A stretch of 64,000 nucleotides of DNA from Clostridia bacterium. Lineage in GTDB: Bacteria; Bacillota; Clostridia; Monoglobales; Firm-18. Both the position numbers and the translations under genes were made by a program. Of the stretch, positions 110 to 54,450 are shown piece by piece. The notes below the pieces were generated by a model. That model made no database searches. It saw nothing but the letters and a program-made list of their open reading frames with translations, and was not told the DNA's origin. How positions within the stretch are numbered: position 1 is the first letter of the stretch; each line of letters opens with the position of its first letter. The stretch covers positions 11,512 to 75,511 of the forward strand of contig JAZQIO010000006.1 in assembly GCA_045541135.1 (NCBI GenBank), read 5' to 3'.

Positions 110-887
110 AAGAAGTTGGACTAAAAAATACGGTAAGTCTGAAATTTTTACAAAGGAAGACAGCTATTGCCAGAATGTTGAAATAGATATGGTTAAGCTT
201 GCTGACGGACAAACCAAAACATACAAAGAAGAAGGCAAGGAGTTTGCTTTGGTTATTTTAGGCGGTAAGTGCACAGTTGCCGGCAAAGGCTTTAACTATG
301 AAAACATTGGTGAAAGAGAAACTGTTTTTGACGGTAATGCAACCTGTGTGTATGTTCCAAGAAACACAGAGTTTACAATAACAGGTGTTGGCGAAGTTTC
401 AATTGCAGTAAGCAAGTGCCCGTCTGTTAACGACCACAAGCCTGTACTTATAAAGCCTGAAGATGTTGTTGCCAAGGAACTTGGTAAACCCGGCTGGGAA
501 AGACACGCTATGTTTGTACTTGATGAAAGAGTAGAGGCAGACCAGATTTACATTGGCGAATGCTGGATTGAAGGCGGACAGTGGTCAAGCTATCCTCCAC
601 ACAAGCACGATGATGACAATATGCCAACAGAAGCAAAAACAGAAGAAATTTATTACTATGAATTTGACAAGCCTCAGGGCTTTGGTATTCAGAAGGTTTA
701 CACAATGGAAGGCGACATTGATGAAACCTACACAGTTAAGTCGGGCGATTTTGTGGAAATTCCAAGAGGCTATCACCCATTCCATTCCGCACCCGGTTAC
801 AAAAACTATATGCTTTGGATAATGGCAGGCCCTGTAAGAGGATTTTATATGACCACAGATGAGGAACACGCATGGCTGAACAAATAA
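102..887 (+). CDS. iolB: 5-deoxy-glucuronate isomerase (KduI/IolB cupin family)
   Basis: ORF 93-887. WSSYPPHKHD...EEIYYYEF...GYHP block matches IolB as I recall it. AAGGAG at 86-91 precedes ATG 102. Confidence 0.8.
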   Translation: MFKRSWTKKYGKSEIFTKEDSYCQNVEIDMVKLADGQTKTYKEEGKEFALVILGGKCTVAGKGFNYENIGERETVFDGNATCVYVPRNTEFTITGVGEVSIAVSKCPSVNDHKPVLIKPEDVVAKELGKPGWERHAMFVLDERVEADQIYIGECWIEGGQWSSYPPHKHDDDNMPTEAKTEEIYYYEFDKPQGFGIQKVYTMEGDIDETYTVKSGDFVEIPRGYHPFHSAPGYKNYMLWIMAGPVRGFYMTTDEEHAWLNK

Positions 888-1726
888 TACTTAAAAACAA
901 TGACATTAAGGTTACAATTTCTGCACTTGGTGCAGAAATTGTAAGCGTTTTAAAAGACGGTAAGGAAAAAATGTGGTGTGCAGACCCCGACGTATGGGGG
1001 ATGTGTGCCCCCATAATGTTCCCTGTATGCGGTGGACTTAAGGACGACAAATTTATTTTTGAGGGTAAGGAATACACACTTGGCAAACACGGCTTTGCAC
1101 GTTTTATGGAATTTGAAGTAGAAAGTGCAGAGGAAGAAAAGGCTGTATTTTTGCTTCGTTCTAATGAGGAAACCCTAAAACAGTATCCCTTTGACTTTGA
1201 ATTTCGTGTTGCTTACACAATAAGCGGTGGGGATATTAAGGTTGAATACATAACCAAAAATGCAGGTAGCGGGGATATGTACTTTTCCGCAGGTGCTCAC
1301 GAAGGCTATGCCTGCCCCGGCGGTATTGAAAACTACAGCATAATTTTTGAAGAAGAGGAAGACCTTGTAAGCAATGTTTTAGAGGGTAATATTCTTGGCT
1401 ACAACACAGTAAATGTGGGTAGCGGTACAAGGGAATTAAAGCTTAAAGACGAATTTTTCAAGGTTGACGCACTTGTGTTTTTAAACTTAAAATCCAAAAA
1501 GGTATGGCTTAAAAATAATGTAAACGGCGAAAGTCATTCCGTAGAATTTAAGGGTGCACCTTATCTTTTACTGTGGACAAAATACAAGGCGGAATACATT
1601 TGCATAGAGCCTTGGTTTGGTATTTCGGACTTTACTGACAGTAATATGGATTTTGCCAATAAAAAAGGTATTACAAAACTTGTACCCGGTGAAGTTTGTA
1701 TAAATACACACACAATTTCTTTTTGA
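872..1726 (+). CDS. aldose 1-epimerase (galactose mutarotase-like, LacX-type) family protein
   Basis: 284-aa ORF overlapping the iolB stop. FPVCGG, GKHGFAR and EPW motifs are typical of the family. Confidence 0.7.
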   Translation: MAEQIILKNNDIKVTISALGAEIVSVLKDGKEKMWCADPDVWGMCAPIMFPVCGGLKDDKFIFEGKEYTLGKHGFARFMEFEVESAEEEKAVFLLRSNEETLKQYPFDFEFRVAYTISGGDIKVEYITKNAGSGDMYFSAGAHEGYACPGGIENYSIIFEEEEDLVSNVLEGNILGYNTVNVGSGTRELKLKDEFFKVDALVFLNLKSKKVWLKNNVNGESHSVEFKGAPYLLLWTKYKAEYICIEPWFGISDFTDSNMDFANKKGITKLVPGEVCINTHTISF

Positions 1727-2060
1727 GGGAATGTAAAAAAAGTCCAGACCGCAAAAAGAGGATAAAAATAAGAAATTCAAGTTATTTGTAATTTGCAAAA
1801 CATCTTAATTTGGTTGAAAAATCTCATTTTATTCGATTTTTCCTATTTTTCAAATCTTTTTGCTACGAACAAACTTCACCTCTACAGTCGATTTCAACTG
1901 CTCAACGACGTCGCAAGCGACTTGTTTTGCAGGAAATCTTTGTATGGGTGCTGTTCGCAAAATCGAAGATTTTGACAGCACCGCATCTCGTATACACATA
2001 CAGCTTCGGGTAACCCCTGCGGGTTCAGTTTGTCCATTCTGAACATTTTTTCCTATTCCC
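1727..2060. repeat. Intergenic repeat type 2, copy A (334 bp), imperfect terminal inverted repeats, hairpin-rich
   Basis: Starts right after stop TGA 1724-1726. Left end GGGAATGTAAAAAAAGTCCAGA; rc of right end GGGAATAGGAAAAAATGTTCAGA. Shares ends and core blocks with 13706-13937 and the core with 10460-10527. Confidence 0.6.
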
Positions 2061-2118
2061 AAAGTGAATGGATGTAAAAAAGTAAGCTTACATCTTATGC
2101 TATTTAAGGAGAAATACT

Positions 2119-2766
2119 ATGCTTGGAAATTTAAAAAAATTAAATCCCGATATTAAAATTTACAGTATTCACGATGATGAATTTAAAAAATACGGTGCTG
2201 TTATAGATTTTGATGCATCGGATATGGTTAAGGTGTGCGGTGAGCTTGGTTTGCCTGATGAAGGAACAAGTTATACGGCATCGGTTACAGAACTTGAAAA
2301 TCTTGAGTGTTCGGATTTTTTACGTAAAAGACTTTTTGGCGGCTTGGATGCCCAGGTGGGCTTATGCTGTGGACATAGTAGTTTTTTGAACGGTCTTGAA
2401 TACCACAACAGCTCGGAAATTAATGTAGCGGCTACACCTTTGGTTTTAATACTGGGACTGCGTTATGAAATGGAAGGCAGTGAATATAACAGCGAAAATG
2501 TAAAGGTTTTTTATCTTGAAAAAGGTGATGTTGTAGAGATTTTTGCTACATCTATGCACTTTTGCCCATGTCAGGTAGATGACAGTGGCTTTTCATGTGT
2601 GGTGGTGCTTCCAAAGGGTACAAATACGGACCTTGAGGAAAAGTATGATGATAAATTGCTATTCAGAAAAAACAAGTGGATTATATGCCACGATAAAAAC
2701 GAAGGCTTAATTGAACGCGGTGTTTACCCCGGTATACACGGTGTTAATTATGAGATTAGGTATTGA
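2119..2766 (+). CDS. DUF4867-like cupin-fold protein (function unknown)
   Basis: 215-aa ORF with AAGGAGA SD 6 nt upstream. Resembles DUF4867/ureidoglycolate-lyase-fold proteins from memory; not searched. Confidence 0.5.
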   Translation: MLGNLKKLNPDIKIYSIHDDEFKKYGAVIDFDASDMVKVCGELGLPDEGTSYTASVTELENLECSDFLRKRLFGGLDAQVGLCCGHSSFLNGLEYHNSSEINVAATPLVLILGLRYEMEGSEYNSENVKVFYLEKGDVVEIFATSMHFCPCQVDDSGFSCVVVLPKGTNTDLEEKYDDKLLFRKNKWIICHDKNEGLIERGVYPGIHGVNYEIRY

Positions 2767-2767
2767 T

Positions 2768-4240
2768 ATGAAATATTTACTTGGAATTGATTTTGGCGGC
2801 GGTGCCTCAAAGGCTACACTTTTAAGTGTAGAGGGTAAAATTGTTGCCACAAATACAACTGAATATCCTACAAATTATCCAAAGCCCGGCTATGCAGAGC
2901 AAAATCCTGACCATTGGGTGGAGGCTACCTGCGAAAATATTAAGGGTGTGCTTTCAAAAAGCGGTGTTATGCCAGAAGATATTTGTGCATTATCCCTTGA
3001 TGCGGCTACGCATACTGCGGTAATTATGGACGAAAACTTTAATGTTATACGCCCCGCTATTTACTGGACAGATACCAGAAGCACAAAGGAAGTAGCGTAT
3101 TTAAAAGAAAATTACGGAGACGTAATTGAAAAGCAGGTGCTACATAAGGCGGACACAATATGGTCACTGCCCGAGCTTATGTGGATTAAAAATAACGAGC
3201 CCGAAAACTGGGGAAGGGTAAAAAAGATTTTGTTTGCAAAGGACTATGTACGCCATTGCCTTACAGGTGACTATGTTACCGATTTTATTGAGGCAGAAGG
3301 CAGTATGATGTTTGACATCAATACAATGCAGTGGAGCAGAGAGCTTTGTGACATTTTGGAAATTGATGTTAATATGATGCCGAAAATTGTAAAGCCTACT
3401 GATATTGTTGGTAAAATTACGGCAGAGGCAGCTGCTCTTACAGGTCTTTTAGAGGGTACACCGGTGCTTTGCGGAACAACGGATACAGTTATGGAGGTTT
3501 TTGCTTCCGGTGCTGTTACAAAGGGAGCAATGACTTTAAAGCTTGCAACAGCAGGCAGAATTTGTGTGGTTACGGATAAACCGTATCCAGACATTAATCT
3601 TATTAACTATTCCCACGTTATAGACGGTTTATTTTACCCGGGTACGGCTACAAAGTCCTGTGCCGCATCTTACAGATGGTACCGTGACACCTTTGGCGGT
3701 GACTATGCCGAGCTTGATAAATTGGCAGAGGGTGTTGCAATAGGATCAGATGGACTTGTGTTCCACCCATATTTAAACGGTGAGCTTACACCTTATGCTA
3801 ACCCGAATTTGTGTGCAGATTTTGTAGGTGTGCGTTCTTCACACACAAAGGCACATTTTACAAGAGCGGTTTTAGAAGGTGTTGCAATGTCTATGCTGGA
3901 TTGCAAAACTGCACTTGATAATCTTAATATTCCGCACAGTGACAGCGCTGTTATAATAGGCGGTGGCGGTAAAAGTCCACTTTGGCGACAGATGATTTCC
4001 GACGCTTTGGGCATTAAGCTTGTGGAAATGAAATATGCAGATTCCTCACTTGGCAGTGCTATGCTTGCAGGTATTGCAGTAGGTGTTTTTGAAAGCCCTG
4101 AAGTGGCTGTGGCTACTTGCAATGCAGTAGTTTCCGAAACACTTCCAAACAGTGAAAATACAAAGGAATATGCAAAATTATTTAAAAAATATAAAGCAGT
4201 TCAAAAGGCATTAGAGCCTATATATAACGGAGAATTTTAA
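2768..4240 (+). CDS. FGGY-family carbohydrate kinase (xylulokinase-like)
   Basis: MKYLLGIDFGGGASK actin-fold N-terminus and IIGGGGKSPLW C-terminal motif. Start moved from ORF start 2711 to ATG 2768. Confidence 0.85.
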   Translation: MKYLLGIDFGGGASKATLLSVEGKIVATNTTEYPTNYPKPGYAEQNPDHWVEATCENIKGVLSKSGVMPEDICALSLDAATHTAVIMDENFNVIRPAIYWTDTRSTKEVAYLKENYGDVIEKQVLHKADTIWSLPELMWIKNNEPENWGRVKKILFAKDYVRHCLTGDYVTDFIEAEGSMMFDINTMQWSRELCDILEIDVNMMPKIVKPTDIVGKITAEAAALTGLLEGTPVLCGTTDTVMEVFASGAVTKGAMTLKLATAGRICVVTDKPYPDINLINYSHVIDGLFYPGTATKSCAASYRWYRDTFGGDYAELDKLAEGVAIGSDGLVFHPYLNGELTPYANPNLCADFVGVRSSHTKAHFTRAVLEGVAMSMLDCKTALDNLNIPHSDSAVIIGGGGKSPLWRQMISDALGIKLVEMKYADSSLGSAMLAGIAVGVFESPEVAVATCNAVVSETLPNSENTKEYAKLFKKYKAVQKALEPIYNGEF

Positions 4241-5592
4241 TGAAAATTATAGTTTGTGTAAAGGTAATAAAGGGAGAAATTAACCCATTTGACGAATCCG
4301 CATTGGAATGTGCACTTACCCTTTCCAATGACGTTACGGTTTTGTCAATGGGTCCGAAATCCTGCGAGGATGCATTAAAGCCACTTACACGCCTTGGTGC
4401 TAAGGTGGTGCTTATAAGTGACGGTGTATTTGCAGGGTCTGATACCCTTGCTACGTCGTACATACTTTCTACTGCAATTAAAAATATGGAATACGACCTT
4501 ATTTTATGCGGCAGACAAAGTATAGACGGTGATACTGCACAGGTAGGGCCAATGCTTTCGCAGATGCTTGGATGCTTACTTGTTACCAATGCACTTTCCG
4601 TTGAAGTTAAAGAAAATGAAGTTTTTACAAAAACACGTATGGGTGATGAAACAGTAAAAACACCTGCACTAATAACTTTAGAGCGTGGGTACATTTTACG
4701 CTTTCCAAGCATTTTTTCAAAGGTTGGGGAAGTTAAGATTATTGACAATTCCTCACTTAACTGCGATTTGTCAAGGTGCGGTCTTTCAGGCTCACCTACA
4801 AAGGTTTTACAGTCCTTTGAAAATGAACGTGGAAAAAGAAAGTGTAAATTTATAACAATGGCAGAACTTTTGCCTCTTGTTGAAAAGCTTAAAGGTGAAA
4901 ATGTAAAAAGTGAAAAAAGTACATACAGCGGTGTTAAGTTAAAAGCTGTGTGGGCTGTTGGCGAAAGGGTACTTGAAAAGGCAAGGGAAATAGCGGAAAA
5001 GGTTGTTTTAATTGATGAAATGACTCCCGAAGAAATTGCACAAAAGGCTATGAAGGAAAAGCCCGATGTTGTACTTTGGAATGCAGACTTGTGGGGCAGA
5101 AAAAATGCACCTGTTGTGGCGGCAATGCTGAGTACGGGACTTTGTGCCGACTGTACACACCTTGAAACCGACGGAGAAACACTCTTTATGTACCGTCCTG
5201 CACAGGGGGGTAACATTACCGCAAAAATAAAGTGTACTGCAAAGCCACAGATGGCAACTGTACGCACAAAATCCGAAAGCTCGGACATTATTGTTTCAGG
5301 CGGCAAGGGTGTTGGAGACAGTATAGATAAACTGCACGACCTTGCAAAAAAGCTTGATGCACAGCTTGGCGCATCACGGGGACTTGTGGATTTAAACGGT
5401 GCACCCTACGAGCATCAGGTTGGTTTAACAGGTAAAACCGTAAGCCCTAAAATTTACATTGCAGTCGGTATTTCAGGTGCTATACACCATACCGTTGCAA
5501 TAGAGGGTGCAGGAACGGTTATTGCCATAAATCCCGATAAGGATGCAAGGATTTTTGAGTATGCTGACTATGGCATAATAGATAGAATATAA
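4240..5592 (+). CDS. Fused electron-transfer flavoprotein (EtfB-like N-half + EtfA FAD-binding C-half)
   Basis: N-half: MKIIVCVK, GRQSIDGDTAQVGP, GLSGSPTKV (EtfB). C-half: PKIYIAVGISGAIHH, AINPDKDARIF (EtfA). ATG overlaps the kinase stop (TAATG). Confidence 0.8.
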   Translation: MKIIVCVKVIKGEINPFDESALECALTLSNDVTVLSMGPKSCEDALKPLTRLGAKVVLISDGVFAGSDTLATSYILSTAIKNMEYDLILCGRQSIDGDTAQVGPMLSQMLGCLLVTNALSVEVKENEVFTKTRMGDETVKTPALITLERGYILRFPSIFSKVGEVKIIDNSSLNCDLSRCGLSGSPTKVLQSFENERGKRKCKFITMAELLPLVEKLKGENVKSEKSTYSGVKLKAVWAVGERVLEKAREIAEKVVLIDEMTPEEIAQKAMKEKPDVVLWNADLWGRKNAPVVAAMLSTGLCADCTHLETDGETLFMYRPAQGGNITAKIKCTAKPQMATVRTKSESSDIIVSGGKGVGDSIDKLHDLAKKLDAQLGASRGLVDLNGAPYEHQVGLTGKTVSPKIYIAVGISGAIHHTVAIEGAGTVIAINPDKDARIFEYADYGIIDRI

Positions 5593-5625
5593 TGAATAAT
5601 TAATAATTAATAATGAATAATTATG
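5593..5625. repeat. AATGAATAAT-type short tandem motif directly after a stop codon
   Basis: tgaataattaataattaataatgaataatt. The same motif recurs at 10716-10744 (rc) and 13668-13702, each at a gene 3' end. Confidence 0.5.
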
Positions 5626-5628
5626 GTG

Positions 5629-5657
5629 GAAATCCGCTTTTGGCGGATTTCTTTTTG
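5629..5657 (+). terminator. Rho-independent terminator of the DUF4867-kinase-ETF unit
   Basis: 9-bp stem GAAATCCGC/GCGGATTTC, 5-nt loop, then TTTTT. Confidence 0.7.
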
Positions 5658-5690
5658 TTTGCAATTATCAATTTACCCATTATCAATTAA

Positions 5691-5722
5691 AAAGACCTGT
5701 AAAAATTTTTTACAGGTCTTTA
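5691..5722. terminator. Bidirectional terminator (perfect 16-bp palindrome)
   Basis: AAAGACCTGTAAAAAA/TTTTTTACAGGTCTTT, lying between convergent units (ETF + strand, GH88 - strand). Confidence 0.65.
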
Positions 5723-5801
5723 TTAAAGTGCTTTTACAATTTATAAATCTCTTTAACTTCTTATCTTTTTATTTCTTTTTTTTACATTCCCATAAAATTT
5801 C

Positions 5802-6944
5802 TTACCAGATAAGGAAGTCCATACCCTTTAGCTTACAAAGTGCTTCTACAAAGAAGAAGTCACCGTAAATAATCGGAATGTGCAAGCCTCTGCCCTGATT
5901 TTTTTCGTTAGGATAACGTTCTGAACCCATAAGCACAAGTGCATCTTCGTCATCTGAATAGTTGCAGAAGTGTTCGTCTGTTGCCTTTAGAATGTTTATT
6001 GCTGCTTCCGTATATCTTTTTGCTTCAGCTTCATCTACATATTTTGCAATTTCAAGCAAACCGCAGGCTGTACATACACCTGCTGTGCTGTCATAGTATA
6101 CAGGTTCTGCAGGAGCTGTAAAGTCTACAACTGCTTTATAATCTGTTTTTTCAACATTTTTAATAAAGTAGTCTGCTGTTTTAATTGCAGCATCAAGATA
6201 ATCCTTTTTACCTGTGTGTATGTATGAAAGTATTGTGCCGTATACTGCCCATGCAAGACCTCTTGACCAGCAGGAGCCTACAGCATAGCCCTGACCTGCA
6301 TGAGTCTTTATAACTTCCGGCTTTTCCAGGCTGTGCTCTACAATGTGGTTTACGGAACCGTCCTCACGGATGTGGTCACGAATTGCCATATCACAATGTG
6401 CCATAGCAATTCTCTTTAGTCTGTCTATATTCTTTTCCTTTGATGCCCAGTAAAGAAGAGGAATGTTCATAAGGCAGTCTATTATAGACCATTCTTCGTC
6501 ATGATTCCATGCGCTTATGAATTTGCCGTCTATGTTATAACGGGAACCAAGAACGTGTGCTGCATACATATTGCGAAGGAATGACTTTCGATCCCCTGTA
6601 ATACGGTATGATGCACCTGCTGTTAAGTGGTACATAAAGCCAACATCGTGGTGAAGACCGTCATATTTTTCAAAAGCTGTGTCTAAAAGCTCTTCACTTC
6701 TCTTAGCAGTCTTTTTGAATTCTTCGTTTTCTGTAGCAAGATACATAAGCCACATCATACCGCCCCAGAAGCCGTTTGTCCACCAGCAGGGACGTGTTTC
6801 GTGGCAGTTATCGTGAACGCCGTTTACTGTTGTGTAGGGCAGCTTGTCACGGCTTTTTACCGCAACCTTTGCAAGCTTACTTTCAACCTTTGCCCATGTT
6901 TCGTCAAGCCATTGCTTGTTTTCGTTTATAACGTTTTTATCCAT
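5802..6944 (-). CDS. Glycoside hydrolase family 88 (unsaturated glucuronyl hydrolase-like)
   Basis: 380-aa ORF. WWTNGFWGGMMW and CWSRGLAWA blocks are characteristic of GH88/UGL. Confidence 0.8.
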   Translation of the reverse strand: MDKNVINENKQWLDETWAKVESKLAKVAVKSRDKLPYTTVNGVHDNCHETRPCWWTNGFWGGMMWLMYLATENEEFKKTAKRSEELLDTAFEKYDGLHHDVGFMYHLTAGASYRITGDRKSFLRNMYAAHVLGSRYNIDGKFISAWNHDEEWSIIDCLMNIPLLYWASKEKNIDRLKRIAMAHCDMAIRDHIREDGSVNHIVEHSLEKPEVIKTHAGQGYAVGSCWSRGLAWAVYGTILSYIHTGKKDYLDAAIKTADYFIKNVEKTDYKAVVDFTAPAEPVYYDSTAGVCTACGLLEIAKYVDEAEAKRYTEAAINILKATDEHFCNYSDDEDALVLMGSERYPNEKNQGRGLHIPIIYGDFFFVEALCKLKGMDFLIW

Positions 6945-9725: not shown

Positions 9726-10325
9726 ATGTATATTATAAAAAAAACAGAAAACAGAAAGCTTTCAATGTTTGACAAGGCGTGGGACAACGCAAATGTTGCA
9801 GAGGTTAACTGCATAAACTGGAGTGAATTTCACTATGCACCAAATACCACTGCAAAAATTCTTTACAATGACTACGGCATTTATGTACAGATGCAGACAG
9901 ATGAAGAGGAAATTCTTGCAAAGCGCACAAAGCAGAATGATGATGTTTCTAATGACAGCTGTATGGAATTTTTCTTCCGTCCCAATGAAAATGACCCACA
10001 CTACTTAAACTTTGAATTTAATCCTTTCGGTACTATGTATTTTGGCTACCGTACCGACAGATATAATTATATAAATCCCGATGTAAAAAACAGCTTTTTT
10101 GAAGTAGAAACTTTTGTTGATGAGGGTATATGGATTTTGCAGTACTTTGTGCCATTCACCCTTATTGACAGCCTTGCAGGCGGACATACAAAGAAAATGT
10201 ACGGTAACCTTTTTAAGGTTGGTGTGGAAACTGCCATAGAACATTATGTTACATATGCACCAATAAATACAGAAGAACCTGATTTTCACAGGCCTGAGTG
10301 TTTTGTTGAATTCATTCTTGAGTAA
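9726..10325 (+). CDS. Carbohydrate-binding family 9-like (DOMON-like) protein, no signal peptide
   Basis: DSCMEFFFRP...YLNFEFNPFG block is typical of CBM9-like proteins. Start set to ATG 9726 after GGAGGAAG; the ORF opens at 9642. Confidence 0.6.
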   Translation: MYIIKKTENRKLSMFDKAWDNANVAEVNCINWSEFHYAPNTTAKILYNDYGIYVQMQTDEEEILAKRTKQNDDVSNDSCMEFFFRPNENDPHYLNFEFNPFGTMYFGYRTDRYNYINPDVKNSFFEVETFVDEGIWILQYFVPFTLIDSLAGGHTKKMYGNLFKVGVETAIEHYVTYAPINTEEPDFHRPECFVEFILE

Positions 10326-10575
10326 GGCTAAGATTTTGGCGACGAACGTTCAAAGGCAATGAAAAGGTAAATGAAGATAGTGATAATTTTTATTTGTAAT
10401 TATAGTTGTTTGGTAGGAATCCGTAGAAACACGGATTCCTTTTTTGCCTTTGAACTATAAACAAACTTCACCCTTGACGTACCATTGTACGCCTTCGGGT
10501 AACCCTACGGTTCAGTTTGTTCATTCTTCATCCAAAATCCCTACGCCTTTTAAGGCTGTGATTTTGGCGATGAAC
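10323..10575. repeat. Composite repeat region B: 25-bp direct repeats flanking a 12-bp inverted repeat, a terminator hairpin and the type-2 core
   Basis: DR TAAGGCTAAGATTTTGGCGACGAAC (10323-10347, begins with the stop TAA) vs TAAGGCTGTGATTTTGGCGATGAAC (10551-10575). IR GTTCAAAGGCAA 10348-10359 / TTGCCTTTGAAC 10444-10455. Core 10460-10527. Confidence 0.55.
10414..10446 (+). terminator. Rho-independent terminator (hairpin B1)
   Basis: AGGAATCCG / CGGATTCCT 9-bp stem followed by TTTTTT. Confidence 0.6.
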
Positions 10576-10617
10576 CTTTATAGTTGATAGTAGATAGTTG
10601 ATAGTGGATAGTTATGG

Positions 10618-10643
10618 AGGGAACGCAATGCGTTCCTTCTTTT
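10618..10643 (+). terminator. Terminator-like hairpin B2 preceded by GATAGTN tandem repeats
   Basis: AGGGAACGC aat GCGTTCCTT stem, then CTTTT. Upstream lies tagttgatagtagatagttgatagtggatagtta. Confidence 0.45.
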
Positions 10644-11693: not shown

Positions 11694-12941
11694 ATGAAGG
11701 TTAAAATAGGTATAGTTGGTTTTGGAGAATTTTCACTTAGCCATCTTGATATATTTTTAAGGCATCCCGATGTTGAAACGGTGGTGGGTGCAGAGCTTAA
11801 TACTGAAAGAAGAAATGCGGTTTCAAATGAATACGGCATTAAAATGTATCAAAGCTTTGACCAAATGCTTGAAAATGACAAAGATATAAACAGCGTAGGT
11901 ATTTTTACGCCGAGGCATTTGCACGGACCTATGATTATAAAGGCACTAAAGGCAGGGAAAAACGTGTTTTCCGCAGTGCCTATGGGCTGTACAAGGGAGG
12001 AAATATTTGAAATTTTAGATCTTGTAAAAACTACGGGACTTACCTTTGCAATGGCGGAAACCTGTTATTATTTCCCCTGCGCAGTGTGGGCAAGAAAGGC
12101 TAAAAAAGAGGGTAAATTCGGCGATGTTATGTACGGTGAGGCACAGTATTATCACGACATTACTGAAATGCTCGGTGCCTATGAATCCAAAGCTATTGCA
12201 GGCATACCGCCCATGTTTTACGGTACACATTCTGCTGCAATGCTTATATCTGTATTCGGCGAAAGCCCGAAGGAGGTAAGCTGTTTTGGTATTGAGGATA
12301 AAATCGGCGACGGTATTTACGGCAAGGGTGTAAACCCCTGGGACAATTCATTTTCCAACGAAACTGCTGTTGTACGATTTGAAAGCGGTGCACTTGGAAG
12401 ATTAAATGAATTCCGACGCATTGGTACAACAAGACCCTCAAGCTATATAACAGGCATATACGGTAGTAAAGGGGCTTATGAATGTAGTGGCAATCAACAC
12501 TTTTTTTCACAGGGCAAGGTTTTCGGTCAACAGCCACAGTCTTTTGATGTAAGCGATGAAGTCAATACATACACCTTTGTGGAAAATAAGGAAAATATAA
12601 AAGACGGTGCAGGCAGACTTGACTATAAGTACCACACAGGCTGGTCTGCGGTACATAATACAAAACGCCTTCCAAAATGCCTTGTGGAAATGGCGGAGGA
12701 ATACAGGGCAAAAAATGAGCTTTCACAAATCGGTCACAACGGTTCACATTTCTTTACCATAGACGACTTTGTTAAGGCAGTTGTACAGAATCAAATACCG
12801 CCAATTAACGCATGGAGGTCTGCGGAATATACTTTGGTTGGCATTATTGCACACGAAAGTGCTGAACTGGGCGGAAAAACTTTGGAAATACCAAGTGTGG
12901 GAGACCTTCCCACAGACAAGGAGGTTTTGAATTTTGATTAG
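11694..12941 (+). CDS. Gfo/Idh/MocA-family NAD(P)-dependent oxidoreductase
   Basis: MKVKIGIVGFGEFS Rossmann N-terminus. Start set to ATG 11694 after GAGGTGA. Confidence 0.8.
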   Translation: MKVKIGIVGFGEFSLSHLDIFLRHPDVETVVGAELNTERRNAVSNEYGIKMYQSFDQMLENDKDINSVGIFTPRHLHGPMIIKALKAGKNVFSAVPMGCTREEIFEILDLVKTTGLTFAMAETCYYFPCAVWARKAKKEGKFGDVMYGEAQYYHDITEMLGAYESKAIAGIPPMFYGTHSAAMLISVFGESPKEVSCFGIEDKIGDGIYGKGVNPWDNSFSNETAVVRFESGALGRLNEFRRIGTTRPSSYITGIYGSKGAYECSGNQHFFSQGKVFGQQPQSFDVSDEVNTYTFVENKENIKDGAGRLDYKYHTGWSAVHNTKRLPKCLVEMAEEYRAKNELSQIGHNGSHFFTIDDFVKAVVQNQIPPINAWRSAEYTLVGIIAHESAELGGKTLEIPSVGDLPTDKEVLNFD

Positions 12942-13683
12942 TTGTTGTATAGATATGATGTTTTCATACTGCGATTTTTACGATAGGTTTGAGGAAGTTA
13001 AAAAATGCGGTATAGATACAATAGAATTCTGGAAATGGTCAAATAAAATTATAAGTAAAATTCAAGACAGCGGACTTAATGTTTCTGTTTTTAACCTTGA
13101 CAGTACTGACGAAGAGCTTTCCTACCACCTTTCAAGAGGTATTATAAACGACGGCAGAGTTGATGACTTTTTGCAGGCGTTGGAGGAAAGTATACCTGTT
13201 TACAAGGCTTTGGATGCAAAGGCTATGATAGTGCTTATTGGTGAAAATGCACCCTACAGTGAGGAAAATGTTATAAAGTGCTTAAATGCCGCAAAGCCTA
13301 TGCTTAATGAATACGATGTTAACTTGGTTGTAGAGCCTTTAAATAACATAGACAGAGTGGGTTATTCCATGCCCTACGCAAAGCCCGTTTTTGAAATGTT
13401 AAGAAAGGTAGGAAGCCCTCGTATAAAGATGCTTTACGACATTTATCACCAGAATATGATGGGTGATTTTTCAATGGAGGATATAAGGGAAAACATATAT
13501 ATTATAGGACATTTTCACGTTGCTGATGCACCGGGCAGAAACGAGCCGGGTACAGGCAAGGTGGACTATGTAAGCATTTTAAAAGAAATTAAAAAGCTTG
13601 ATTATAAGGGTTATATTGGTCTTGAATACAAGGCTACTCAAAAAGACCAAGCTACGCTTGGCTTTTTAATGAATAATGAATAG
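12934..13683 (+). CDS. Sugar phosphate isomerase/epimerase (xylose-isomerase-like TIM barrel; hydroxypyruvate isomerase-like)
   Basis: 249-aa ORF; HFHVADAPGRNEPGTG and GLEYK motifs. TTG 12934 lies 9 nt after GAGG. The C-terminal MNNE* is encoded by the AATGAATAAT repeat. Confidence 0.7.
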   Translation: MISCCIDMMFSYCDFYDRFEEVKKCGIDTIEFWKWSNKIISKIQDSGLNVSVFNLDSTDEELSYHLSRGIINDGRVDDFLQALEESIPVYKALDAKAMIVLIGENAPYSEENVIKCLNAAKPMLNEYDVNLVVEPLNNIDRVGYSMPYAKPVFEMLRKVGSPRIKMLYDIYHQNMMGDFSMEDIRENIYIIGHFHVADAPGRNEPGTGKVDYVSILKEIKKLDYKGYIGLEYKATQKDQATLGFLMNNE

Positions 13684-13702
13684 TTAATAATGAATAATGA
13701 AG
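13668..13702. repeat. AATGAATAAT-type tandem motif spanning a stop codon
   Basis: aatgaataatgaatagttaataatgaataatgaa. It supplies the last codons and the stop of the TIM-barrel gene. Confidence 0.5.
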
Positions 13703-13705
13703 GAA

Positions 13706-13937
13706 GGGAATGTAAAAAAAGTCCAGAACGCAAGAAAAAACAAAAAGCAAGATATTATCAATAAAATAATCGAATTAAATTTATGAAAACAAGGTAGAAA
13801 AATCGAAATTGTTCGATTTTTCATAAAATTACTTTTTTCTTGCTATGAACAAACCTCCCCCGAGCCGTACCATCGTACTGTCTCGGGTCACCCCTTCGAT
13901 TCGGTTTGTCCATTCTGAAACATTTTTTCCTATCCCC
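13706..13937. repeat. Intergenic repeat type 2, copy C (232 bp)
   Basis: Left end GGGAATGTAAAAAAAGTCCAGA is identical to copy A; rc of right end is GGGGATAGGAAAAAATGTTTCAGA. Shares the GAACAAACYTCMCC ... GGTTYRGTTTGTCCATTCTGAA core. Confidence 0.6.
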
Positions 13938-13963
13938 TCTAAAACAAAATCAAGGGACTGTAA

Positions 13964-13996
13964 CAAATTTTTACAGTCCATTTTTTATTACACTGA
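13964..13996. terminator. Bidirectional terminator between convergent units
   Basis: GGACTGTAA caaattt TTACAGTCC with T-runs on both strands. Confidence 0.6.
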
Positions 13997-33910: not shown

Positions 33911-34252
33911 TTATTTATTTATATCATTTAAAAGCTTGTTGATATGTGCACCGTGCTCTATAGAATTATCAAGTGTAAACAATATTTCCGGTGTATAGCG
34001 AAGACCAAGTCTGTGAGCAAGCTCCTTACGTACAAAGCCTGCTGCATTTTTTAGTCCTTCAATTGCATCCTTCTGTGCGTTTTCATCACCAAAAACACTG
34101 ATATACGCCTTGCACCAGCGAAGGTCTTTTGTTATATCAACAGCTACCACACTGCAAAGACCCTTAGTAACCCTTGGGTCTTTGAGTTCCCGTATAATTG
34201 AACTTATTTCTTTGCGTGCTTCTTCATTAATTCTGTCTATTCTGTTTGCCAT
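33911..34252 (-). CDS. rbfA: Ribosome-binding factor A
   Basis: MANRIDRINEE... Start set to ATG 34252 after AGGAGAA. The ORF's upstream 16 codons lie inside the repeat element. Confidence 0.85.
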   Translation of the reverse strand: MANRIDRINEEARKEISSIIRELKDPRVTKGLCSVVAVDITKDLRWCKAYISVFGDENAQKDAIEGLKNAAGFVRKELAHRLGLRYTPEILFTLDNSIEHGAHINKLLNDINK

Positions 34253-34264
34253 AAGCAATTCTCC

Positions 34265-34540
34265 TAGCCGAAAGAGAATAATCCGAACCTCGATTTTCAA
34301 AGGTGAATTTCCGCTTTCGTTTTGTTAAAATACTCGGCAATCCATCAAGGATTACCTGCGTTTTTGCCTTACGCAACCAAAAATTCTCTCTTTGAAAATT
34401 CCATGACCTTAAACAGATGGAATTTCGAGCAGATTTTGGTGCGGAAGATGAAGCAAGGCTGACGCCTTGCGAAGATGACAAGCCTGAAGATACCGAAATT
34501 ACGCTGTTTAAGGCGGGTTCGGGTTACTATCTTTCGGCTA
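34265..34540. mobile_element. MITE-like non-coding element type 1, copy 1 (276 bp, ~25-bp TIRs)
   Basis: TIRs TAGCCGAAAGAGAATAATCCGAACC vs rc TAGCCGAAAGATAGTAACCCGAACC. Second copy at 54176-54450 (17 substitutions + 1 indel by hand). TA on both flanks; no conserved ORF. Confidence 0.65.
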
Positions 34541-52174: not shown

Positions 52175-54163
52175 TCAGTTCCAGGTTTCCTCCAATGTCA
52201 TTGAAAGTTCGCCGTCAAAATACACATCAATGTAACTCACATTCGAAGAAGACGGCTTTGCAACATTAAATGAGAATGAAAACTCATCCTTGCTGTGTTT
52301 TTTGTAATAAATCTGAGACCCATCCTGATTTACCTTAACCAAAACAGTATCCCTGTCCTGAGGAAGATTTATTGTAATATTTTTCATCTGTGCTGCTTCT
52401 TCTGCCTTTTTAAGTGTTAAATGAATAACAGCACCCTCTGCAACTACATTGCCTTCATATACTGCTTTTTTTCCACCTACGGAATCTTCATCTTCAACAA
52501 ACATACCTGTTACAACATAATGGTCAGGTGCACCGGCTGGGTCAGTACCACCAAGGTCAAGACCGTTATTTTTCAGCCATTCCTTAGCATCCTTAAGCTT
52601 TAATTCTGTAATATTTTCCATTTTAACGCCCTTGATACCCAAATACACGGTTATTTCATCATTTTTTTCCACCATAGTATCTGCCTTGGGCTCTGTTTTT
52701 AAAACCTTGCCGATACTTTCTGTTTCGGTAACCGGCTCTTTTACAACATTGACGGTAAAGTCATAATCCTTTTCATAATTTTTAAGCTCTTTTTCATATT
52801 CCTTTTCCGTCATACTTACAAGATCAGGCATCATAAAGCTGTCAAAAGGAACTGCAACTCTTATGGTTATGGTATGTTTAGCCTTTATAGTATCTCCGGG
52901 CTTAGGATCCTGAGATAAAACAACACCTTCTTTTTGGTCGCTCTTTTCTTCAACAACTTCAATTTTAAAGTTACCGCCGTTTTCCATATCGTATTTTTCA
53001 ATAACAGCCTTGTAATCCATACCCATAAGATTAGGAGTTTCCAGAGTTTTGGTTGTACAACCGGAAAAACCGCCACCTAAAAGTCCCCACAATACAAGCC
53101 ACATAGCAAGGACAATAACCGCAAAGGATGATATAATCGCCAAAGCAACTGCTGTTTTTGTACCCTTTTCGGCAGGCTTTTTATTTTTATCGGTTGTTCT
53201 TCTTCCGTCGGTATGTACAGGTCTGCGTGCTGTACTACCCGCTTCACTATCAGGCTTATGATTAGGCTTAGGCTCGGGCTTTACAGGTTCCATTTTAATT
53301 GTATCACCATAATTAACGGGAACGTCCGGAATAATATGCTCGGATGGCTTTTGCATCGCCTTATTTAAGTCTGCAAGCATTTCTTCGGCAGACTGATACC
53401 GTAAGCTTTGTTCCTTGCTCATAGCCTTTAAAATAATTGCCTCTACAGAAAGTGGAACGGAAATATTAAATTCCTTAGGGCTTACAGGTTTTTCCTGCAT
53501 ATGCTTAATTGCAATTGCAATAGGGCTTTCTCCGTTAAAGGGAAGTATTCCTGTTATAAGCTCGTACATAACAATGCCCAAAGAGTACAGGTCACTTTTT
53601 GCATCGGTATATCCGCCTCTTGCCTGCTCCGGTGAAAAATAATGTACAGAGCCCATTGTACTTTCGCCCATATTTGTGGTTTCGTTTGTAGCCGCACGTG
53701 CTATACCAAAGTCCGTAACCTTAAGCACACCGTCATTTGTAAGAATAATGTTCTGGGGCTTTATGTCACGGTGAATAATACCGTTTTTATGTGCACGGTC
53801 AAGTGCAGAACAAATCTGTATTGCATATTCAACAGTTTCCTGCCATGAAAGCATACCGTTTGCATCAATATATTCTTTTAAAGTCTGACCCTCAACATAT
53901 TCCATAACGATGTAATGAATGTCACCGTCGTGACCAACATCATAAACATTAACAATATTAGGGCTTGAAATTGTTGCGGCAACCTGAGCTTCCTTGTTGA
54001 ATCTTTCTAAAAATTCCTTATCATTTACAAATTCGCTTTTTAAAATTTTAACTGCAACATTTCTGTTAAGCAAACGGCAATGTGCAAGGTAAACATTTGC
54101 CATACCTCCGCTGCCTATTTCTTTTAATAATTCATATCTGTTTCCCAAAATCATACCAATCAT
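52175..54163 (-). CDS. pknB: Ser/Thr protein kinase with PASTA repeats (PrkC/PknB)
   Basis: GSGGMANVY...VAVK, HRDIKPQNIL, DFGIA; one TM, then PASTA-like repeats. Start set to ATG 54163 after GGGAGGT. The ORF's upstream 16 codons lie in the repeat element. Confidence 0.9.
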   Translation of the reverse strand: MIGMILGNRYELLKEIGSGGMANVYLAHCRLLNRNVAVKILKSEFVNDKEFLERFNKEAQVAATISSPNIVNVYDVGHDGDIHYIVMEYVEGQTLKEYIDANGMLSWQETVEYAIQICSALDRAHKNGIIHRDIKPQNIILTNDGVLKVTDFGIARAATNETTNMGESTMGSVHYFSPEQARGGYTDAKSDLYSLGIVMYELITGILPFNGESPIAIAIKHMQEKPVSPKEFNISVPLSVEAIILKAMSKEQSLRYQSAEEMLADLNKAMQKPSEHIIPDVPVNYGDTIKMEPVKPEPKPNHKPDSEAGSTARRPVHTDGRRTTDKNKKPAEKGTKTAVALAIISSFAVIVLAMWLVLWGLLGGGFSGCTTKTLETPNLMGMDYKAVIEKYDMENGGNFKIEVVEEKSDQKEGVVLSQDPKPGDTIKAKHTITIRVAVPFDSFMMPDLVSMTEKEYEKELKNYEKDYDFTVNVVKEPVTETESIGKVLKTEPKADTMVEKNDEITVYLGIKGVKMENITELKLKDAKEWLKNNGLDLGGTDPAGAPDHYVVTGMFVEDEDSVGGKKAVYEGNVVAEGAVIHLTLKKAEEAAQMKNITINLPQDRDTVLVKVNQDGSQIYYKKHSKDEFSFSFNVAKPSSSNVSYIDVYFDGELSMTLEETWN

Positions 54164-54175
54164 AATCAAACCTCC

Positions 54176-54450
54176 CAGCCGAAAGATAATAATCCGAACC
54201 TCGATTTTCAAAGGTGAATTTTCGCTTTCGTTTTGTTAAAATACTCGGCAATCCGTCAGGATTACCTGCGTTTTTGCCTTACGCAACCAAAAATTTTCTC
54301 TTTAAAAATTCCTTGACCTTAAACAGATGGAATTTTGAGCAGATTATGGTGCGGAAGATGATGCAAGGCTGACACCTTGCAAAGATGACAAGCCTAAAGA
54401 TGTCGAAATTACGCTGTTTAAGGCGGATTCAGGTTACTATCTTTCGGCTA
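54176..54450. mobile_element. MITE-like non-coding element type 1, copy 2 (275 bp)
   Basis: Collinear with 34265-34540 along its full length. TIR left CAGCCGAAAGATAATAATCCGAACC, right rc TAGCCGAAAGATAGTAACCTGAATC. Lies between the stp stop and the pknB SD. Confidence 0.65.

Follow-up and report, generated by a model that had tools for sequence, protein, structure and literature searches.

An uncatalogued structured extragenic repeat family of gut Clostridia with a conserved three-way-junction core

In the 64,000-nucleotide (nt) stretch of Clostridia DNA analysed here (contig JAZQIO010000006.1, positions 11,512 to 75,511; hereafter the window), an aldose 1-epimerase open reading frame (ORF; 872-1726, identified with Pfam) ends with TGA, and a sequence beginning GGGAATG starts directly after it, at 1727. 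This sequence opens an extragenic repeat that occupies 1727-2060 on the minus strand. The repeat, copy A, is 334 nt long (about 228 nt without a nested insert) and is one member of an uncatalogued family of structured extragenic repeats of gut Clostridia, ~230-250 nt in length. The original prediction, which had been made from the letters of the window alone, set the start of the element immediately behind the epimerase stop codon, and this was confirmed by the junction TGA/GGGAATG at 1726/1727. In four DNA gut metagenomes, word depth over 1727-2060 reached 100-2600 versus ~7 in the flanks, and the boundaries reported earlier matched depth steps and loose ends at 1726/1727 and 2060/2061. These data indicate that the boundaries are those of a highly repeated unit.

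The window contains three copies, all on the minus strand, at 1727-2060 (copy A), 13706-13937 (copy B) and 10326-10547 (copy C). A covariance model of the core gave only three window hits, likewise on the minus strand, at 10454-10530 (83.8 bits), 13842-13919 (66.8 bits) and 1968-2043 (39.6 bits), with E-values of 1e-8 to 1e-20 for the window copies, and an nhmmer search of the window returned the same three copies only. The sequence blocks that had been described as shared were recovered: the 22-nt left end GGGAATGTAAAAAAAGTCCAGA has an exact second occurrence at 13706 (2 matches versus 0 expected), the right-hand block GGTTCAGTTTGTCCATTCTGAA was matched 3 times (0 expected) and the block GAACAAACTTCACC 6 times (0.5 expected). 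Copy C, which had been taken for a partial copy, is in fact a complete element with its own arms, divergent in sequence yet complementary. At copies A and B, metagenome contigs break at the repeat, and no empty sites were recovered there. For the copy B subfamily, the depth of the interior (13742-13843; runs X5, X6, X7 and X10) was ~26-35 versus ~5-6 in single-copy flanks, pointing to roughly five near-identical copies of this subfamily in each genome.

In species-representative genomes, a first pattern scan detected 23 loci and a second at least 118. All listed loci came from metagenome-assembled genomes (MAGs) of gut Clostridia from ruminants, deer, yak and Hadza humans, with carrier labels including Congzhengia, Ructibacterium, Aphodoplasma and Oscillospiraceae, and they represent ~60 assemblies of species-level MAGs, counted by eye from the assembly prefixes. 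Automatic delimitation gave 141 copies with a median length of 243 nt, the longest delimited element being 535 nt, and a set of 31 copies was delimited by hand. No match was found in the collections of viral contigs, phages and plasmids searched. Scanning Rfam, as had been proposed, gave 0 hits at the gathering threshold across the whole window (Rfam 15), the hits from scanning copies A and B by E-value were all below threshold and chance-like, and no earlier description of the repeat family was found in the searched literature. A structured extragenic repeat is a known kind of element, but neither this family, nor its architecture, nor its host clade is in Rfam or in the literature searched. 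Structured interspersed repeats are well studied in Proteobacteria (REP/REPIN) and in streptococci (BOX), and we know of no comparable work on the uncultured Clostridia, which are dominant in the guts of ruminants and of some humans. The family is unusual in being widespread, strongly structured and absent from Rfam and in having a conserved internal three-way junction. Moreover, its repeats have a practical effect, as they break metagenome assemblies at their edges.

Fold and covariation of the family

On the minus strand, the element consists of a closing helix, P1, formed from both ends, a three-way-junction core, P2, and a variable arm, P3, with a terminator-like hairpin (Table 1). Helix P2, which contains a tandem G-A, makes up the core together with mini-hairpin P2a, hairpin P2b and, as an option, a further hairpin, P2x. 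Read 5' to 3', the consensus begins with the P1 5' arm GGGAUAGGAAAAAAUGUUUCAGA and the P2 5' strand A-AUGGACAAACUGAACC, followed by a short junction or the optional P2x, P2a (GGG-UUA-CCC), GAA, P2b and CGAGA; then come the P2 3' strand GGUGAAGUUUGUUCAU and the P3 5' strand AGCAAAAAG, a P3 interior in which an A-rich stretch leads into a strong hairpin and then 60-100 nt of AT-rich sequence that varies, and finally the P3 3' strand CUUUUUGCG and the P1 3' arm UCUGGACUUUUUUUACAUCCC. P2 is nearly invariant, and P1 and P3 differ between subfamilies yet stay complementary. Minimum-energy folds of copies A and B reproduced this layout with z-scores of -4.3 to -6.3, with energies on the minus versus the plus strand of -102.2 versus -92.2 kcal/mol for copy A and -67.1 versus -52.7 kcal/mol for copy B. 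The fold also has variants: the P2a loop is longer in locus L007b, L013b has one more hairpin, and P2b is expanded by 70-190 nt in L010, L017 and L022. Compared by eye with hammerhead, K-turn, dif/Xer-site and attC motifs, the core fitted none.

The fold accounts for several features of the original prediction. The two complementary 14-mers are both strands of one helix, P2, in which G-U pairs improve the pairing on the minus strand. The hairpin followed by a T-run is present, but it is internal to arm P3 and not an end of the element. The ends, described as resembling terminal inverted repeats, are indeed complementary, but behaviour as transposase-bound terminal inverted repeats is not supported, as subfamilies differ in end sequence and only the pairing is kept.

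The proposal of a structured family is supported by heavy covariation. In a first alignment of 27 copies, from which P3 interiors and large P2b inserts had been excised, 96.7% of cells were standard pairs, and 20 of the 39 pairs showed compensatory changes versus 7-10 for slid partners; by helix, these were 8/9 pairs in P3, 6/7 in P2b and 4/6 in inner P1. A second alignment of 131 distinct natural P2 domains had 97.1% of cells paired and compensatory changes at 18 of 28 core pairs, including 8/14 P2 pairs and 4/4 tested P2x pairs. G-U outnumbered A-C by 69 to 10 on the minus strand, counts that are dominated by a few conserved positions and thus represent few independent events. The mean pairing energy of the P1 arms was -18.9 kcal/mol within the same copy versus -12.0 kcal/mol for arms of different copies. 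A strongly conserved three-armed core together with ends that need only to pair implies a specific binding partner or activity.

Two results had been named in advance as overturning the prediction: copies confined to the three loci with neither covariation nor a transcript, or similarity arising by chance among AT-rich intergenic sequence. The AT-richness of the P3 interior is all that speaks for chance similarity. With exact 22-mers where 0 are expected, the E-values of the covariance model and 141 copies elsewhere that covary, this explanation is already refuted and its probability is practically negligible.

That copy A is longer was confirmed: in DNA metagenomes, other members of the family skip 1884-1989 and join 1883 to 1990 via 4 nt, CGCT, so that the insert of copy A is 1884-1989. 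This 106-nt segment folds as two further hairpins and stands in place of the P2b 3' strand AGCG. L173 and L138 contain homologues with 79-82% identity over 61 nt and compensatory differences, which are placed between P3 and the 3' arm of P1, unlike the P2b position in copy A. The presence of homologues at another host position indicates that the insert is an independent small structured module nested in the element, in agreement with the nested insertion suggested earlier. Separately, GC-rich inserts of 50-100 nt were observed inside the AT-rich P3 interiors of L001, L006, L018 (2555-2805) and L076 (4312-4845). They fall into two or more sequence types, such as CCCTCAGTCACTTCGTG.CAGCTCCC.. or CCCTCCACCACCTTCGGTGGTCCCCC..., and are probably further small nested repeats.

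Table 1 Coordinates of the parts of copy A and of related features in the window
Feature	Position	Strand	Remark
P1 5' arm GGGAAUAGGAAAAAAUGUUCAGA	2038..2060	-	pairs with 1727-1748
P2 5' strand GGACAAACUGAACC	2022..2035	-	99.1% paired in 131 sequences
P2a mini-hairpin GGGGUUACCC	2008..2017	-	GGG/CCC nearly invariant
P2b hairpin	1990..2004	-	3' side cut off by insert
Nested structured module, 106 nt	1884..1989	-	two extra hairpins; skipped by other copies
P2 3' strand GGUGAAGUUUGUUCGU	1865..1880	-	contains conserved tandem G-A/A-G
P3 5' strand AGCAAAAAG	1856..1863	-	P3 99.2% paired
Internal P3 hairpin GAAAAAUC...GAUUUUUC	1816..1842	-	terminator-like mainly for plus-strand transcription
P3 variable AT-rich interior	1759..1815	-	free divergence among orthologous copies
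P3 3' strand CUUUUUGC	1751..1758	-	pairing in alignment
P1 3' arm UCUGGACUUUUUUUACAUUCCC	1727..1748	-	adjoins epimerase stop codon
Companion T-like hairpin GGATGTAAAAAAGTAAGCTTACATC	2070..2094		9 nt past 5' arm; imperfect in copy A
Copy B	13706..13937	-	complete, no insert
T palindrome of copy B GGGACTGTAACAAATTTTTACAGTCC	13954..13979		3' half matches element 3' arm
Copy C	10326..10547	-	complete; other subfamily; arms GGCGUAGGGAUUUUGGAUGAAGA / UUCGUCGCCAAAAUCUUAGCC
Partial second unit beside copy C	10551..10636	-	3' arm and P3 3' strand direct repeat 10551-10583, variable sequence, hairpin 10620-10636
Decayed copy	5694..5791	+	T-like palindrome GACCTGTAAAAATTTTTTACAGGTC 5694-5718 and 3'-arm remnant CTTTTTTTTACATTCCC 5768-5791

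Genomic placement, companion sequences and persistence

Among the 141 copies, the gene context was convergent for 59, tandem-antisense for 40, tandem-sense for 15 and divergent for 0. The 3' end of the element lay within -19 to +25 nt of the stop codon of the oncoming gene in 96/114 copies (84%), and the gap to the stop codon was 0-8 nt in 18 of the hand-delimited copies (n=31). The upstream gene was co-directional in 65% of copies and ended a median of 58 nt ahead of the 5' arm, and the other 35% had no such gene. In the 6 nt past the 3' end, T content was 62% in the 31 hand-delimited copies. The internal P3 hairpin was found in 105 copies, with an A-tract ahead in 40% and a T-tract behind in 12%, so this hairpin is terminator-like mainly for the oncoming gene. 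A strict terminator scan called none in copy A.

Upstream of the element, a sigma-70 promoter was predicted in 1/138 copies versus 6/138 in shuffles, and sigma-H-like and T-embedded TTTACA motifs, judged by eye, did not fit in spacing. Of the marks of an independent small RNA (sRNA) gene, the element has a terminator-like 3' end and no sigma-70-type promoter upstream. A riboswitch or cis-regulatory leader was rejected, since the element has no constant position in a 5' untranslated region, only 15/114 copies precede a co-directional gene, and the genes nearby have unrelated functions. Family members were present in metatranscriptome contigs at low depth, in unstranded data in which DNA carry-over is possible. 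Two loci show genes close behind the element: in L013 (2710-3260), a transfer RNA (tRNA) gene lies between two inverted copies, each 3' arm being 8 nt from an end of the tRNA gene, and in L076 (4312-4845) the second copy ends 9 nt ahead of the ribosome-binding site and ATG of the next gene, which is therefore transcribed through or out of the element.

The genes neighbouring the copies were read in 8-kb loci, ~1 Mb in total. Clustering of 800 neighbouring ORFs gave only AraC paralogues and orthologous housekeeping genes, and no reverse transcriptase, integrase cluster or RAYT-type (Y1 HUH) gene recurred in these loci. Relative to the majority gene direction, which served as a proxy for that of replication, the copies had no preferred orientation (69:63); GC skew follows gene direction and says nothing on the replication strand.

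Many copies are accompanied by a repeat of their own end. A significant match to the last 30 nt of the element was found within the 60 nt upstream in 44/135 copies versus 1/135 controls. The matching sequence in the common subfamilies forms the 3' half of a perfect palindrome, T, located 8-20 nt before the 5' arm, for example GGGACTGTAAAAAA..TTTTTTACAGTCCC; subfamilies with GCATTTTGCTACAGCC arms have GGAGCTGTAGCAAAATG..CATTTTGCTACAGCTCC. Of the strict T-like palindromes in 1 Mb, 18/26 lay within 40 nt of an element 5' end, and several others adjoin copies missed by the automatic list or a decayed copy. In the window, the remnant of a decayed copy lies 10 nt from the stop codon of the gene at 5802-6944 on the minus strand. 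C-type copies have, instead of T, a direct repeat of 25-67 nt of their own 3' part just upstream. The partial second unit beside copy C belongs to such a direct repeat family, D19, and the same arrangement is found at the orthologous L076 locus, where the upstream direct repeat is ~100 nt long.

Head-to-tail arrays occur in L020 and L076 and are also seen as joints that go back in metagenomes. The tandem pair in L076 (4312-4845) has a near-identical P3 domain and different P2 cores, and is therefore a mosaic array. One strain of metagenome X1 lacks the exact 228-bp copy C unit with one repeat kept (joint 10324 to 10553), a solo allele, and two relatives with the same epimerase-DUF4867 gene pair have intergenic regions of 13-70 nt and no element. 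The mobile-element reading offered by the original prediction is thus borne out in part: the nested module, presence/absence polymorphism and tandem arrays agree with it, but the flanks of the 31 hand-delimited copies contain no consistent target-site duplication, and no autonomous partner was found in the ~1 Mb of loci.

Copies persist. The same orthologous position is occupied at argG in four species, at secA in two, at an ileS-like gene in two, and at a CBM9 gene in both the window and MAG JAZQAN01. At secA, the two proteins share 83.6% identity, and the elements are 98.1% identical over the 5' arm plus P2 and 78% over the P3 domain. Between copy C and L076, the neighbour protein is 72.5% identical and the variable interior is unrelated, and P3 has changed from GUUCAAAGG/CCUUUGAAC to UAGUUUAGCUUU/AAAGCUAAAC with pairing kept. 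Copy B shares 97.9% identity with L015, which lies at a locus of JAZQAN01 that is not orthologous; this identity is not readable as horizontal transfer, as host divergence was poorly measured (one 1139-aa protein, with distant relatives only among the matches listed). The placement at stop codons, the companion palindrome and the retention at orthologous sites make it possible to test how the element is copied, whether it has a role in termination, and whether it is a parasite or domesticated.

Comparison with known systems and possible modes of action

REPINs are described as non-autonomous hairpin repeats that are passed on vertically, are long-lived and depend on a RAYT present in a single copy (PMC3116915, PMC3337134, 10.1101/2022.05.22.493013). 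The Clostridia family resembles REPs and REPINs in being composed of short non-coding extragenic hairpin repeats in many copies, which lie at gene 3' ends and in convergent gaps and in 0/114 cases between divergent genes, occur as single copies, arrays and remnants, and are inherited vertically with a long life at fixed loci, the argG, secA, ileS-like and CBM9 loci being common to different species. In contrast, a REPIN is built of two short inverted REPs around a spacer, whereas in the present family the conserved part is a 70-nt three-way junction inside the element, and the ends vary; the companion palindrome of 3'-arm sequence belongs to the Clostridia element, the host clade is different, and no RAYT is shown for it. 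In REPINs, the conserved part is the REP itself. Other similar structured repeats are ERIC, Bacillus bcr and Neisseria Correia. Pneumococcal BOX elements are modular multi-copy intergenic repeats of Firmicutes whose outer modules pair as a stem and whose internal modules vary (PMC3049150). The present element is likewise modular, intergenic and multi-copy, with paired outer modules and a variable interior, and for both a mobilising enzyme is yet to be identified. However, the two have no sequence relation, BOX has no conserved three-way-junction core, and the Clostridia family spans many genera whereas BOX is found in one species group. We know of no report of BOX elements at stop codons.

Other systems share single traits with the element. 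Integron attC sites are imperfect palindromes in which structure is conserved over sequence, with strand-specific folding and conserved unpaired bases, and gene cassettes, like the present units, form unit-repeat-unit arrays and undergo precise loss of one unit. However, no RYYYAAC/GTTRRRY core sites were noticed at the few junctions read by eye with no dedicated search, the copies are dispersed on the chromosome rather than arrayed beside an integrase, no integrase cluster was found in the 8-kb loci, and what would be the cargo is the conserved part here. A bidirectional intrinsic terminator would share the G-C-ended helix, the A-rich and T-rich flanks, the internal hairpin after an A-tract and the gene-end placement, but here the closing helix brackets 200 nt, including a conserved junction for which a terminator has no need. 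PATEs derived from IS200/IS605 have sub-terminal hairpins at both ends without terminal complementarity and a strand bias relative to replication; this identity was rejected because the ends of the element are mutually complementary and no bias relative to the majority gene direction was found (69:63, a proxy only). Class C group II introns are found directly behind terminator-type hairpins (PMC1702495). The likeness lies in this insertion niche only, as the element is ~240 nt long and has no ORF, ribozyme domains or intron-encoded protein, no group II model was hit in the Rfam scans, and the hairpin here shares sequence with the element's own arm.

We tentatively favour the possibility that the family is a REP/REPIN-like element that is handled as folded single-stranded DNA by a trans-encoded protein reading P2 and P1, and that is tolerated for its termination signals. 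Its behaviour is thus taken to be of the REP/REPIN type rather than that of a transposase-bound miniature inverted-repeat transposable element (MITE) or a stand-alone sRNA gene; we infer which molecule folds, RNA or single-stranded DNA, and which agent acts on it. Copying and deletion of the element would take place in DNA, by way of a folded single strand, with the P2 core recognised together with the P1 helix by the trans-encoded protein, most likely an HUH/Y1-type enzyme or a site-specific recombinase. The 3'-arm sequence in T or in the direct repeat may mark the joining point of units, and the host may tolerate or keep an element that offers termination signals in both directions and never disrupts promoters. 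A DNA-level process is suggested by the missing promoter, by an orientation independent of flanking transcription except for the stop-codon rule, by DNA-level features (upstream 3'-arm matches, direct repeats, arrays, mosaics, the solo allele, the decayed copy and element-free relatives) and by hairpins rich in triloops. The loops of the element are mostly of 3 nt (GNA, UUA), which are commoner in stable DNA hairpins than in RNA.

Several points weigh against this reading. No partner enzyme was found in the 8-kb loci around the copies, where AraC paralogues are the sole recurrent neighbour family. REPs are defined by the terminal tetranucleotide GTAG, but no conserved terminal tetranucleotide, nor a REP motif of a 5' GTAG-type tetranucleotide with a short palindrome, was noticed when the ends were read by eye with no dedicated search. 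Some single-strand transposons show an orientation bias, and none is seen here. A selfish element explains the strong P2 conservation at orthologous loci no better than a function at the level of the host does. Functional RNAs typically have tandem G-A pairs, conserved nucleotides at their junctions and peripheral hairpins that vary, and family members do occur in metatranscriptome contigs, with the limits given above. Finally, the solo allele and the arrays could be explained by plain homologous recombination between repeats, with no dedicated enzyme.

The main alternative, in our view rather unlikely, is that the element is a functional structured RNA, transcribed from the minus strand by read-through from the upstream gene or from an unrecognised promoter and ending at P1 and the U-tract. 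Such an RNA might serve to terminate transcription or insulate converging units from each other, offer a site for protein binding or processing, or act in trans, and its multi-copy state would come from duplication of a useful module. It would explain why every helix covaries, why the core combines tandem sheared G-A pairs and conserved junction nucleotides with the optional or expandable P2x and P2b, why G-U exceeds A-C (69 versus 10), and why P2 is ~98% conserved at orthologous loci while neutral parts diverge; the P1 helix with the T-rich tract behind it looks like an intrinsic terminator, a co-directional gene lies upstream of 65% of copies, family members occur in metatranscriptome contigs, and in L076 and L013 a gene or tRNA starts 8-9 nt past the 3' end, indicating that the strand is transcribed there. 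However, upstream promoters were below the shuffled control, 35% of copies have no co-directional upstream gene, the flanking genes have nothing in common, the metatranscriptome evidence is of low depth, unstranded and possibly DNA carry-over, and the triloops are of the kind commoner in DNA. Moreover, the palindromes and direct repeats that match the element's own 3' arm, the arrays, the mosaics and the solo allele are DNA-level traits. RNA could also be the mobile form: a retro-mobile RNA resembling a short interspersed element (SINE) might borrow a reverse transcriptase and home downstream of terminator-type hairpins, as class C group II introns do. Its strand-specific structure, its position a few nt downstream of a hairpin and U-rich linker, the defined 3' end that an RNA ending at P1 and the U-tract would have, and the complementarity of the 5' arm to sequence just upstream of the insertion point, reminiscent of exon- and intron-binding-site pairing, are all consistent with this. 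We nevertheless regard it as very unlikely, since the Rfam scans detected neither group II ribozyme domains nor any other retroelement RNA, no reverse transcriptase gene recurs near the copies, there is no promoter, no excess of 5' truncation is seen (2 orphan 3' versus 5 orphan 5' ends), and copies are retained vertically for long at orthologous sites.

A classical MITE, moved by cut-and-paste by a DDE transposase that binds terminal inverted repeats, would likewise be small, non-coding and multi-copy with imperfect inverted ends, presence/absence polymorphism and nested insertions. This is extremely unlikely, because the end sequences vary between subfamilies inside one genome and the interior core is the conserved part, a consistent target-site duplication is missing in the 31 hand-delimited copies, neither a longer element with the same ends nor a transposase occurs in ~1 Mb of flanks of the 141 copies, and the G-U strand asymmetry is unexpected for double-stranded binding sites. 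Returning to a folded single strand handled by a protein, one specific form of it, improbable in our estimate, is that the P2 junction is the handle of an undescribed trans-acting enzyme and the covarying P1 arms are its guide to the companion palindrome or direct repeat, that is, to the subfamily-specific 3'-arm sequence; alternatively, P2 might be a new catalytic or protein-recruiting RNA. If P2 is such a handle and P1 such a guide, the family would represent a structure- and base-pairing-directed system for the insertion and excision of non-coding DNA in a clade without a cultured model.

Other repeats in the window

Two further repeats were observed. An AT-rich repeat, TAATGAATAATGAATAGTTAATAATGAATAATGAAGG, and its variants occur at or beside gene stop codons at 5576-5626, 10581-10617 and 13667-13703 of the window; the last overlaps the final codons and the stop codon of the gene at 12934-13683 and lies between that gene and copy B. 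Over 13640-13707, depth was 500-6500 in three of four DNA metagenome runs and 83-342 in the fourth, with flanks at ~6, and is far above the depth of the structured element. The other repeat, of 290 nt, is located at 34250-34540 and 54161-54450, with 93% identity between the two copies, and gave no Rfam hit in the window scan. Its reverse complement was found by reading in L076 (1-150), directly upstream of the ribosome-binding site of the CBM9 orthologue. The repeat looks like a conserved minus-strand 5' leader.

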